Positions 511 through 5,007 are shown, counted from the first letter of the stretch. The stretch is DNA of 24,336 bases from a virus (IMGVR_UViG_2740892113_000002), one strand, 5' to 3'. Numbers and translations: made by a program. The notes: a model not told the origin generated them from the sequence alone.

Positions 511-3500
511 TCAGCTAATCGTGATGCCTGCAGTGGCTTTCTTCATCACCACAACCAGCAAATCGCTGATACTTGCTGTGGGATACCAGTTATTTACCAG
601 CCATGCTGACACCGAAAACTCCAGTGTCATGTGACCGTGACCGGCAGGCATATCAATAACACCACTGTAAATCAGCGTATTATCCAGCGCGGTACGGTTA
701 TAAATTTCAGCACCGTTTTTCCGCACTATCAGACGGCATGAGGAGTAAATATCAGTATGCTCTTTCTCATGTTTAGCGCCGCTGAATGCCACCGCCGGAA
801 TAACAATCTGCCGGTCAAACGGCTGATCGTCATAAACCCTGACGGTAATGGTTCCTGATGGCCACCGCTCCGGTGCACGGGAGTCCCGGGGGAAAGCTTT
901 GCCCACTGTTTTAACGAGATCGCCTTCAATCTGGTTCGCGGACAATTTTCCCAGAACCCGACAGTTCTCGTTAATCGTGACGTTGTTGAGCGTCCCGGAG
1001 TTCGCATTCACGTTACCGCTGATATCGGCATTTTTCGCCGTCAGCCGCCCGTCCGGTGTCAGGGAAAATGCCGGAGGATTACCGCCGCTGGTAATGGTGG
1101 GAGCCGTCAGATATTTCAGGAACACTTCATTCATAAATATCTGATCGCCCTGACCAACAAACATCGGCTTTGTGTTGCCATTCGCAGGATTAATCATCGC
1201 AATCCTGTCTGCCGCCAGCAGCACCTGACTCTGCATTCCTGCTGGCGTATTCTCAATACCGGCACCGATACCCGCAATATAAAGGCGTCCGTCCTGCATC
1301 TGCTGCAGTTTCACGGCCCACATGCTGTTCAGGTTATTATTTGTATCAACCTGAACTTTCTGTATCTGCTGGATTGCCGCACTCTGATTTTCCAGTTTTT
1401 TATTGACGGTCTGCGTGATTTCATTGCTGACATTCGTAATGGACGTCCTGATTTCAGCCAGGTCCGGCGCAAGCTGACCGTTATCAATCTGCGTCCACAG
1501 CTCCTGGGCCAGATGTGTTTTCCCGATTTCTCCTTTGAAAAAATCCAGGTAACCTTCCGCATCATCGCTCGCCCGACCGACAGCCTCCACGAATGCCGAT
1601 TTGCCAACAGTATTCACACTGCGGATATAAAAATAATAATCATGGCCCGGTTTGATATTGATACTGGCAGCTATCCAGTACAGCGCCGAGCCAAGATAGC
1701 GGGCTGCGGTTTCAACCTGCCTGATATCCGCAATCCGCTTTTCCGAGAACCAGAACTCAAACTGTACCGTCGGGTCATAAACGGCAAGATGTGGCGTTGC
1801 GGTTATCTGAAAATAGCCCGGCGTCAGCTCAATCCGCGACGGTGCTGCCGGTGCGGCAATCCGGAAGGTGGTGGTGGCAGGTTCACCCTGCTGGCCATAG
1901 CTGTTTATCGCCCGCACCGTCAGGGTGTATTCCCCGAGCGGCAGGCCGCTGAAACGGTGCTCCGTGTCTGCGGTGATGGCGGTGGTCACCAGTCTGGCAT
2001 CCGTTCCCTTACCACTGGTCAGGCGCAGACTGAAGCGCACACCCTTCACCACCCGCGGCGTGTCCCATTTCGCCTGCGCCAGATACTGGCCGTCAGCTGC
2101 GCTCACCTCCACCGTCAGGTGCTGCACTGCCGGTGGGATGACGCTGTTCAGGGAACCTGACTGCGGCTCAAAGCGGGCACCGTTATCCACGATGGCTTCT
2201 TTTTCCGGTACGTGCTGCACCGCCGTGATGGCAAAGGTGCCGTCCGTGTTTTCCCGGATGGAGACACAGCGGAACAGGCGACGGCGCAGTGACGGCAGGG
2301 AGAGTCCCCACACCCCGTATGTCTCCACACCATCAGGCAGGGTACTGACCTGTATCCGGTCCGGCGCGGGGTGTGCGGTGATGTCCACACTCACCGGCTT
2401 ACCGCTGCCGTTAATCAGGTTCACCGCCGATGTACCTGTCTCCGGCAGGGTAACCTCACGGTCCAGCGTCAGGGTGCGGGTGGCAGCATCAATGGACAGG
2501 ACACGTCCGCCGGTCAGGGTCCCGGCATAGTCATTATCACAGATTTCAATAATGTCACCGGGTGTGTGCCGCAGCCCCTGAGACCCGAGCGTGAAATCCA
2601 CCGTCTGCGTTTCCAGCAGTTCGGTCTTTATCACCCACAGTCCGGCACGGTGGGCCTGACCGCGGCTGGTACAGCCGAACGCGTCCATCTTCAGCAGGTT
2701 GCGTCCGTAGCGCAGTATGGCTTCCGGGTCTTCCACCAGTTCCGTGGAGGTCTGCCAGCCGTTCTGCGGGTCGGTGTAATTCACCTCCACCGCCGTGTGC
2801 CGGTCCTTCAGGGCACTGAAGCTGTAGCGGAATCCCACGCCGTTATCATCCACCACCACATCGCTGTTGGTGTACGGCCACACCACATCCGACGGGCGGT
2901 CCTGAACGAACGTCAGCGTCTGACCGTTCCATACCGGCATACAGCGCATCGCAGAGCAGAAATCACTGAGAACGTCCCACGCCTTACGCTGTTGTGCCAG
3001 GTACGCATTAAAGGTCATCCGCGGCTCGGTCCCCCCGAAACCATCCGGGACCGTCTGGTCGCAGTACTGCCCGATGGCATACAGCGCCCACTTGTCCACA
3101 TCCGCCGCCCCCAGACGTTTTCCCATGCCGTAGCGCGGGTGAGTCAGCATGTCCCACAGACACCAGGCCGGGTTGTTGCTGTATGCCGGTTTCAGACTGC
3201 CGTCCCAGATACCACTATACGTGCGTTTTTCCGGGTCATAGTTTGACGGCACCTGGATGATGCGACCGCGGATATGGTAGTTCACCGTCATCTGCTGGCC
3301 GCCGAACTGCTCCGCATCCACCTGCAGCCCCACAATGGCCGTGTTCGGGTAGCACTGTTTCACATCGATGATTTCGGTGTATGACGACCACAGCGTCTTA
3401 TTCTGCAGCTGGTCCGTGGTGCTGTCCGCCGTCTCCCTGACCATCCGGATGTTAAAGGGCCGGGGAGGCAGATTATCCAGAATCACCGAGGCCAGGAACT

Positions 3501-3984
3501 GTGAGGTGGTCTTGCCGTTAATGGTGACGTCCTTTTCTGTCACCCAGTTACCGTTACGCTGTAACTGAATCAGCAGGCGGACGGATGCCGGGTTACGGTC
3601 ACCCTTTGAGGTGGTCTCCACCAGTGACTGCACCCCGAAGGTAACCCGCAGGCGGTCAATGTTCGCGGACGTAATGGTGCGCGTCACCGGTTTTGCCTTC
3701 GTCACTTCCACGCCCAGTCCGGTTTCAGCTCCGGAGGACTCAAAGCCTTCCGGTGGTGTCTGCTCCTGCTCCCCGGCGCGCCAGACCGCCGTCACACCGT
3801 GTATCACGGGATTGCCGTCCGTGTCCGTCAGTGGGGTTTTGTTCACCAGAATACTCTGCAGTCCCTTCACCGGACCTTCTATCGGTCCCTCACCAATCGC
3901 ATCAATCACGCTCATCATCTGCGTGGATTTGAGATTATCCTTCGCCTCACGAGGCGTGTGTGCCTTACCGCCACCTTTTCCCAT
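511..3984 (-). CDS. J: Tail tip / host specificity protein J (central tail fibre, receptor binding at C-terminus)
   Basis: 1157-aa ORF. N-terminus [45 protein letters not shown] and overall length match lambda gpJ as recalled. Sits immediately after I/K/L/M/H in lambda order. Confidence 0.95.
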
Positions 3985-4087
3985 ACAGCCTTCCCCTGAA
4001 TAAATTAACCGCCACTTGCCATTCCGTACAGAAGTCGGATATCCTTCGCCCGAAAAGCATGAAACACATTTCTGCCATGCTAAAGAG

Positions 4088-4123
4088 AAACCCCGGTATC
4101 AGCAGATACCGGGGTTTTCTTTC
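4088..4123. terminator. Strong hairpin in the I-J intergenic region (AAACCCCGGTATC-AGCA-GATACCGGGGTTT) with U-rich flank in both orientations
   Basis: Perfect 13-bp inverted repeat with 4-nt loop. Plus strand is followed by TTTTCTTTC, minus strand by TTTCTCTTT. Confidence 0.5.
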
Positions 4124-4189
4124 ATGCCCACCGATAATCCTGTTGGTTAAAACCGGTAATGGCATAAAAATTCTGAATATCTTCACATT

Positions 4190-4217
4190 TTCACACACTG
4201 ACTGTGGCGCTTATAAT
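4190..4217 (+). promoter_or_regulatory. Candidate sigma70 promoter on the plus strand (antisense to the tail operon): -35 TTCACA, 16-nt spacer, -10 TATAAT
   Basis: Perfect -10 hexamer TATAAT and a 5/6 match to the -35 consensus at 16-bp spacing. Located in the 340-bp I-J intergenic region. Confidence 0.4.
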
Positions 4218-4223
4218 TTCGCT

Positions 4224-4321
4224 GCGTTAGTGTTTTTTTGCCCGAGTAACAAAAACAACTCCTTAACATTGATCTTCATTTGTCTGTCCCCGCAGCTCCG
4301 CGATCACTGCGGGATTTTTTT
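4224..4321 (+). ncRNA. Candidate small non-coding RNA (about 95 nt) running from the predicted promoter to an intrinsic terminator
   Basis: Promoter and terminator bracket about 95 nt with no plausible ORF. Inferred from signals only; no homology claimed. Confidence 0.25.
4289..4321 (+). terminator. Intrinsic terminator on the plus strand (CCCGCAG stem, 11-nt loop, CTGCGGG, then A + T7)
   Basis: 7-bp GC-rich stem followed by seven Ts on the plus strand. On the minus strand the hairpin is preceded, not followed, by the U-run, so it is oriented for plus-strand termination. Confidence 0.5.
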
Positions 4322-4326
4322 ATGTT

Positions 4327-5007
4327 TTATCCCTGTCGCCCGATAACCACGACCGTTCCGCCCCCGCCTTCATCACGGGTGCTGATGTCCTGGGATATAC
4401 GGCGGGAGCCAACCAGCATTTCCCCGTAAGGCACCGGCATCGGGTTCCCCTGGGCAATCATGTTATCCAGCGAGGAAAAGTACGTGTTCTGTCTGCCGTT
4501 ATCCGTTGCGCGGTAATCCGGTGTTTTTGCCTTCGGGGCCAGCATCTGGGCCACACCGCCCAGAATCATGCTGGCTCCAAGTGAAAACAGCATCGTGGTG
4601 GCAGAAAAACCACCGGCTGCCAGGGCTGAACCCCATAACGCCATTGATGCCCCGGCAGTGAAGAAAGAGCCCACGATGGCTGCCGCCCCCAGCACAATCT
4701 GCAGTCCACCCTTTCCGGCCCCGGCCAGTCGCGGCACAATATGGATGACCGTTCCCTCACCCAGCTGTTCGTGAAGACGGGCGTACACCGCCTCCGGTGC
4801 CGTGTCATAACCGGCAATACGTATCTGGTACCAGCCTTCGTTCATCTGACGGCGAAAGCCCGGCACCTGTAACGACAGCGCCCGGATGGCTTCCGCTGCC
4901 GTGTTCACATACAGGCTGAGGCGGCGGCCAAATCGTTGTAAATCCCCGTGAAGGCAGATGCGTGCCAGTGGCGGTGACGCCAGACAGAATGCGTTCGTCG
5001 TTGCCAT
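4327..5007 (-). CDS. I: Tail assembly protein I
   Basis: 226 aa. MATTNAFCLASPPLARICLHGDLQRFGRR...GAAAIVGSFFTAGA...NTYFSSLDNM matches lambda gpI as recalled. Overlaps the K 3' end as in lambda. Confidence 0.9.
   Translation of the reverse strand: MATTNAFCLASPPLARICLHGDLQRFGRRLSLYVNTAAEAIRALSLQVPGFRRQMNEGWYQIRIAGYDTAPEAVYARLHEQLGEGTVIHIVPRLAGAGKGGLQIVLGAAAIVGSFFTAGASMALWGSALAAGGFSATTMLFSLGASMILGGVAQMLAPKAKTPDYRATDNGRQNTYFSSLDNMIAQGNPMPVPYGEMLVGSRRISQDISTRDEGGGGTVVVIGRQG

Follow-up and report, generated by a model that had tools for sequence, protein, structure and literature searches.

A lambdoid prophage very probably carries the gene for the known small RNA PasB between its tail genes I and J

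The window analysed here is a 24,336-nt stretch of viral DNA (IMGVR_UViG_2740892113_000002), in which the two tail genes of interest lie on the minus strand. Gene I (4327-5007) matches Pfam Lambda_tail_I (E = 2e-16) and gene J (511-3984), the tail tip / host specificity gene, contains six GpJ Pfam domains; in matching genomes the two are annotated as tail assembly protein and gpJ, respectively. They are separated by a spacer of 342 bp (3985-4326), as expected from the insertion of about 340 bp that the initial annotation had placed at this junction. The statement that I and J abut in lambda holds only roughly, since the real lambda gap is 60 nt; the proposed inspection of the junction in relatives showed it to be near-contiguous elsewhere as well, the gap being 40-55 nt in the distant relatives from Enterobacter, Rahnella, and Pantoea. 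Compared with lambda, the window spacer has about 280 bp of additional DNA. Spacers of 234-255 bp are found in other lambdoid prophages and of 851 bp in prophages with a superoxide dismutase gene at this site, and the 342-bp form occurs in 1445 of 5426 complete E. coli genomes. RefSeq places no annotation within the spacer in matching genomes. On the other side of J, a 127-aa ORF on the plus strand (51-434) converges with the J 3' end; it has no Pfam match and a weak PHROG match (E = 0.02), and strain E2865 has an IS66 element after J in its place.

In terms of transcription signals, the spacer contains a plus-strand promoter at 4190-4217 that agrees with the sigma-70 consensus at 11 of 12 positions (-35 TTCACA at 4190-4195, a 16-nt spacer, and -10 TATAAT at 4212-4217). 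It is the sole match of at least 11/12 on either strand of the 24.3-kb window, where 0.12 would be expected per window and 0.002 per spacer. The intrinsic terminator of the unit, also on the plus strand, lies at 4289-4321 and comprises CCCGCAG, an 11-nt loop, CTGCGGG, a single A, and seven T residues at 4315-4321; its G+C-rich stem has 7 bp (4289-4295/4307-4313). Promoter geometry predicts a primary transcript of about 98 nt (4224-4321, plus strand), and comparable units of 90-101 nt are present in 17 distinct alleles. Both elements had been proposed from the raw sequence, the promoter as near-consensus and the terminator about 95 nt beyond it, and both were located as described, the terminator ending some 98 nt past the predicted start (about 4224). 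The stop codon of I falls 5 nt past the last T of the terminator.

Directly upstream of the promoter is a block, 4165-4190 (plus strand), that is constant in 23 distinct alleles and contains a TCTGA-N6-TCACA palindrome at 4172-4187; the only changes within the block are confined to the N6 of this palindrome. The palindrome agrees with TGTGA-N6-TCACA, the CRP core, at nine of ten positions and is the window's only match with at most one mismatch, 0.77 being expected per window. Its centre lies about -44.5 from the predicted start, compared with -41.5 for a canonical class II site. From its sequence, CRP may control this unit, which we offer as an idea and not as a finding; it is a testable idea for the higher level of the RNA in LB than in DMEM. 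Within the promoter itself, A4213, T4214, and A4216 of the -10 element are invariant across alleles and the remainder is largely kept.

The 176 bp nearest to J (3985-4160) form a module that occurs only in the 342-bp spacer type. It is present with at least 99% identity in 1441 E. coli records, always in the same context, and alignments show no counterpart of it in E2348/69 or Sakai. The module includes the second strong hairpin that the initial annotation had noted upstream (4082-4123, core 4090-4115), ACCCCGGTATC-AGCA-GATACCGGGGT flanked by AAAGAGAA and TTTCTTTC. On both strands its folding energy is -27 to -32 kcal/mol with z about -7, and, lying between an A-run and a T-run, the hairpin is terminator-shaped in both directions. 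At the equivalent position, the 240-bp spacers (e.g. L002, L004, L037, and L064) have a different hairpin, CAGGCACC..GGTGCCTG, with TTGTTTTTG next on the tail-operon strand and, in some alleles, one compensatory change from C-G to U-A. The 60-nt gap of lambda (L101, 1246-1305) likewise holds a tail-operon-sense hairpin, then TTTTGTCATTT. Given these tail-operon-sense hairpins just upstream of J in lambda and in the 240-bp spacers, the hairpin of the window probably lies outside the small-RNA unit, although its presence and strength are as described, and it would be the local version of the hairpin that normally precedes J. In one IMG/VR locus with a 295-bp spacer (L038), a 47-bp deletion between short TTTCT repeats removes the window-type hairpin and leaves the small-RNA unit and the rest of the module intact.

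Five ORFs of 20-128 aa in the spacer were tested and none has a Pfam or PHROG match (best E 0.23), on which basis the protein-coding readings of the spacer were rejected. The earlier judgement that the spacer holds no convincing ORF therefore agrees with the lack of a Pfam or PHROG family for these ORFs and of RefSeq annotation. In phage ASU11 (ON416862.2), a 66-aa hypothetical protein is annotated that corresponds to window 3965-4165 on the minus strand, running through the hairpin and overlapping the J start; this candidate was also rejected, as it has no family support and is unannotated in RefSeq genomes. A further ORF of 22 codons (4211-4279, minus strand, MKINVKELF...) lies antisense to the core of the small-RNA unit and is considered below.

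The unit was identified by comparison with published prophage RNAs. Pathogenicity-associated sRNA B, PasB (Pearl Mizrahi et al. 2021, Sci Adv, PMC8550237), is an 83-nt sRNA of prophage PP6 in EPEC E2348/69 (NC_011601, 1466343..1466261, minus strand; Table S6, PMC8550237), and was detected with the Northern probe AATCCCGCAGTGATCGCGGAGCT (Table S6, PMC8550237). The reverse complement of this probe has a single, perfect match in the window (4294-4316, plus strand), 0 matches being expected by chance; the site falls within the terminator. In E2348/69, PasB lies between a tail assembly gene (ending at 1466255) and gpJ (starting at 1466496), both on the plus strand, so that there and in the window alike the RNA is antisense to the tail genes and positioned between I and J. 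Window 4177-4326 aligns with the E2348/69 locus without gaps and with one mismatch. The counterpart of the published 83-nt RNA, 4239-4321 (plus strand), is identical at 82 of 83 nt, the sole mismatch being position 27 (window 4265), which is A here and C in E2348/69. The reported distinction between PasB-2 and PasB is a single nucleotide, at position 27, and the E2348/69 sequence is reported not to be the commonest variant (Zhu, Shabalina, Storz 2026 preprint, 10.64898/2026.05.13.724894). The predicted window RNA fits the PasB-2 variant.

Given the exact probe match, the one-base difference, and the same synteny and orientation, we conclude with high confidence that the spacer holds the pasB gene, a prophage moron that would be transcribed by sigma-70 polymerase and would yield a trans-acting, Hfq-dependent RNA. 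The RNA is already known, from its 2021 description and the 2026 genome survey, and the feature is not new. The literature on this near-identical sequence bears out the proposed self-contained unit, transcribed from the plus strand and antisense to the tail operon, and the suggestion of a moron-type sRNA gains an exact probe match in the same I-J slot with a single base separating it from E2348/69. Features of a moron are seen in the extra DNA at the junction relative to lambda and the other relatives and in the unit's own promoter and terminator. The expected transcript of 90-100 nt agrees with the promoter-based prediction of about 98 nt but not with the published size of 83 nt; the published 5' end (window 4239) lies some 15 nt beyond the predicted start (about 4224), and the 83-nt form would be either a species processed after the 5' U-run or a rough size estimate. 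Rfam gave no match at gathering score anywhere in the window and has no family for PasB, and a permissive Rfam search of 3900-4400 returned only sub-threshold, terminator-shaped matches to unrelated sRNA families.

The published data describe an Hfq-dependent RNA. PasB accumulates in the E2348/69 lysogen, where its size was corroborated on a Northern blot and its stability depends on Hfq (PMC8550237), with log2 fold changes in delta-hfq of -6.8 in the virulence-activating and -2.4 in the non-activating condition; it is more abundant in the non-activating growth condition (PMC8550237). The RIL-seq summary table of that study assigns PasB 37 partners, comprising 30 CDS/5'UTR, four 3'UTR/intergenic, and, at the level of that table, 0 sRNAs (PMC8550237). 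By the figures given in its supplementary data, PasB is the second RNA (3' partner) in 99-100% of its chimeric fragments (fraction 0.99-1.0), and accessory-genome partners make up at most 2% of them, so that core-genome mRNAs dominate (PMC8550237). The study reports motifs only for PasA and PasD1/D2 and no common target motif for PasB (PMC8550237). According to the 2026 preprint, PasB is embedded in a phage structural-gene operon, is distributed more widely than the other Pas RNAs, and has a function that is not elucidated (10.64898/2026.05.13.724894).

We further compared the unit across prophages. In total, 84 I-J spacers representing 32 distinct sequences were gathered from IMG/VR, GTDB genomes, and reference strains; the scan of genome contigs gave 12 loci, of which the distant ones are without a spacer. 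Sequences of gene I that are 90-98% identical to that of the window were also present on contigs labelled Streptomyces flavalbus, Parendozoicomonas haliclonae, and a Clostridiales MAG, and a contig of a Geobacteraceae MAG has an I gene resembling those of Enterobacter prophages; these foreign-labelled contigs (L005, L007, L009, and L014) are probably assembly contamination. Over the adjoining 300 nt of I and of J, identity to the window is mostly 92-100%, whereas for the PasB unit it ranges from 100% down to 73%. By their sequences, the units appear to represent at least four allele types with recombination among them: A, to which the window and E2348/69 belong, B, C, which is the Sakai type, and D. 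Hybrids between types are also present. Invariant or nearly so in 23 distinct alleles are the block at 4165-4190, most of the -10 element, GCGTTA at the predicted start, the core motifs AAYTCC and TTRATCTTC, the terminator stem, and the U-run. Variation is seen in the -35 element, in the 5' segment past the U-run, in the region separating the core motifs, and in the loop of the terminator. The -35 hexamer is conserved only in types A and B, and not in C and D; type C, with its poor -35, includes EcOnc22, an expressed RNA.

Every allele type has a run of A-R-N triplets ahead of AAYTCC, with at least three repeats at the same position in all four types despite sequence differences. In the window this run is AAC AAA AAC AAC (4248-4259, plus strand), a candidate contact for the Hfq distal face, and the A-R-N motif has been tied to Hfq binding (Tree et al. 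2014, PMC4104026). The candidate seed region (4257-4279, plus strand) contains the conserved CU-rich motifs AACTCC (4257-4262) and TTGATCTTC (4269-4277), both left unpaired by the consensus fold, and CUCCUUA is similar to the anti-Shine-Dalgarno sequence of 16S rRNA. In terms of structure, RNAalifold of 15 alleles places only the invariant terminator in the consensus fold, with all seven stem pairs and the U7 run unchanged and with no compensatory pairs or covariation. Structure in PasB beyond the terminator is neither supported nor contradicted by covariation. The allele series separates fixed segments from free ones and narrows the search for a seed, a role that conservation and accessibility suggest for the CU-rich motifs of 4257-4279.

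The alleles also connect PasB with RNAs described in EHEC Sakai. EcOnc22 (Sp15), EcOnc23 (Sp14), and EcOnc24 (Sp11) are homologous Hfq-bound RNAs (Table S2, Tree et al. 2014, Mol Cell, PMC4104026); EcOnc22 runs at about 85 nt on a Northern blot and is destabilised without Hfq (PMC4104026), and a 2021 review gives the targets of all three as unknown. The published coordinates of EcOnc22-24, placed on the current Sakai record, start 21-23 nt into the spacer. HnrS (EcOnc10), another RNA of that set, matches its terminator only after about 128 is added to its published coordinates, and from this position and the difference in record length a shift of +128 was inferred, the original Sakai record being 128 bp shorter than the current one. 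With or without this shift, the Hfq-CRAC peaks of EcOnc22, EcOnc23, and EcOnc24 fall inside the I-J spacers of Sp15, Sp14, and Sp11 and are antisense; with it, the three peaks cover spacer positions of about 150-211, the part homologous to the PasB body. Over 147 nt, identity between the Sakai units and the window unit is about 73%, with motifs and terminator common to both. EcOnc22-24 are probably divergent PasB alleles. The equivalence is proposed here, since Table S6 of the EPEC paper gives EcOnc homologues for PasA and PasD and none for PasB (PMC8550237) and the 2026 preprint makes no mention of EcOnc (10.64898/2026.05.13.724894). If PasB and EcOnc22-24 form one family, two Hfq-binding data sets merge for one RNA.

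A mechanism can be proposed from these features. Apparently inserted between the I stop codon and the hairpin preceding J, pasB would face against the late operon; host sigma-70 polymerase would start at about 4224 from the promoter at 4190-4217 and stop at the terminator at 4289-4321, giving an RNA of about 98 nt, and a CRP-like regulator bound at 4172-4187 may tune this transcription. PasB would then act in trans as an Hfq-dependent base-pairing RNA, anchored on Hfq by its 3' U-tail and the A-R-N stretch. Its unpaired CU-rich segment (ACUCC...UUGAUCUUC) would pair with purine-rich, Shine-Dalgarno-like sites, and this pairing would lower the translation or stability of host mRNAs. The target prediction that the initial annotation had called for gave nothing when run within the prophage: in RNAduplex, the PasB body scored at best -25.8 against the 56 translation-start regions of the window, worse than the shuffled controls (-32 +/- 3).

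A main role in cis would have PasB, which is perfectly complementary to the I-J intergenic part of the late tail mRNA, pair with that mRNA during lytic growth and alter its processing or J expression, as an antisense regulator directed at the phage and not at the host. In its favour, the late operon encloses the whole of pasB, which runs against it with 5 nt separating the gene from the stop codon of I, and every allele and spacer type preserves this arrangement. We consider such a role unlikely. PasB does not overlap the J ribosome-binding site, from which it is separated by about 240 nt here and by about 140 nt in 240-bp spacers, and the duplex scan just described, run on the window's own start regions, gave worse scores than the controls. 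In addition, at least 98% of the PasB RIL-seq chimeric fragments, by the published figures cited above, involve core-genome partners. The transcribed region moreover falls to about 73% identity between flanking genes that remain 92-100% identical, so that the PasB of one prophage would pair poorly with the tail mRNA of another. The same divergence bears on the notion that the promoter and terminator are chance matches or the inert remains of an old moron such as sodC, the superoxide dismutase gene. Some prophages do hold sodC in this slot, with the PasB promoter replaced there, but promoter, start region, core motifs, and terminator are kept across alleles that have diverged to 73%, and the number of 11/12 promoters expected in the spacer is 0.002. 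With the RNA detected in two pathotypes, the published Northern and Hfq data already contradict this notion, to which we attach next to no weight.

Two other readings concern which product the spacer specifies. The conserved core could be a small protein on the tail-operon strand and not an RNA seed, encoded by the ORF at 4279..4211 (MKINVKELFLLLGQKNTNAAKL) with GGGGA ahead of it. An ATG-AAG-ATY-AAY start is shared by allele types A, C, and D, and of the four changes that separate A from C over the first eight codons, three are synonymous; however, the common type B has ACG instead of ATG, past about residue 8 both length and sequence are unrelated among alleles, the product has no family match, and strand-specific probes and Hfq data show an RNA from the opposite strand. 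These points make the protein very improbable. We are also doubtful of a second plus-strand sRNA of about 70 nt from the J-proximal module, which would start at about 4052 from a promoter TTGCCA-18-TATCCT (4016-4045) and end at the hairpin 4090-4115 and its T-run. Downstream of the promoter-like site (9/12) there is indeed a hairpin of high stability and terminator shape, the predicted RNA would consist of a 5' stem-loop and then the terminator, and the module is at least 99% identical in the 1441 E. coli records. Yet the -10 is weak and 9/12 matches are at about chance level, the near-identity of the records leaves no sequence diversity by which conservation or covariation could be judged, Rfam gives only sub-threshold terminator-type matches, and no published transcript was found for the module. 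As in lambda and the 240-bp spacers, the hairpin is explained as a tail-operon-sense terminator, and no second RNA is needed to account for it. The reading of the spacer as the pasB gene, with a trans-acting RNA as its product, is thus the one that we retain.

Three loci (L089, L092, and L014) have 851-bp spacers with a Cu/Zn superoxide dismutase gene (sodC) on the PasB strand; sodC has its own terminator and replaces the PasB promoter, and the PasB body and terminator remain downstream. With sodC in the same slot in three loci, we view the I-J junction as an insertion site for morons. A broader and more tentative proposal, which we regard as possible though not probable, is that the junction houses a modular, recombining sRNA cassette, with PasB and EcOnc22-24 as its alleles. 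The regulator-binding block, the Hfq modules (A-R-N run and U-tail), and the CU-rich core would be kept in all of them, and prophages would exchange the 5' segment and the region separating the core motifs. If this is true, a cell with multiple lambdoid prophages (up to six copies per genome) would deploy several target specificities under one signal, and the CRP-like TCTGA-N6-TCACA site would link the RNA to carbon source.

Reading the raw sequence for promoter and terminator signals led to a real sRNA gene, to which the present analysis makes modest additions, namely the link between PasB and EcOnc22-24, the allele structure, and the conserved upstream block. Compared with PasB of E2348/69, the window has the same promoter, terminator, probe site, I-J position, and antisense orientation. 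The E2348/69 spacer is 240 bp in length, as opposed to 342 bp here, with an unrelated J-proximal module and a different hairpin, and there are a few base changes in the A/T tract upstream of the CRP-like site; the E2348/69 RNA has been detected by experiment, whereas the unit of the window is known from its sequence. EcOnc22-24 share with the window the I-J slot, the antisense orientation, the upstream block, the start region, AAYTCC and TTAATCTTC, the terminator stem, and U7, but differ from it in the 5' variable segment, in having a poor -35, and in a -10 that reads AATAAT.

Among prophage sRNAs of other families, HnrS (EcOnc10/11/12) is a multicopy RNA that represses hha (PMC13502914). In Sakai Sp12, HnrS is flanked by the Rz lysis gene and the gene for the small terminase, and its identification with the J-proximal module was rejected on this ground. 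In Sp12, the slot between a gene annotated 'DNase' and Rz holds 250 bp with a small ORF and HnrS; the window has only 53 bp there (20797-20849), and this prophage therefore lacks HnrS. Although HnrS differs from PasB in this location and is unrelated to it in sequence, both are Hfq-associated sRNAs of the prophage late region, and the CUUC-containing seed with which HnrS pairs to a ribosome-binding site is counted as a likeness. An anti-sRNA of the AgvB/AsxR type was likewise rejected for the window, which has no Rfam match to AgvB or AsxR, PasB having 0 sRNA partners in the RIL-seq summary. AgvB and AsxR are encoded downstream of PR' near lysis/stx genes, are 51-60 nt long, and sponge host sRNAs, in contrast to PasB. 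They nevertheless resemble it as short Hfq-binding RNAs with A-R-N motifs encoded at moron sites of lambdoid prophages (Tree et al. 2014, PMC4104026), and, like PasB, they form families in which a conserved 3' part is joined to a variable 5' part.
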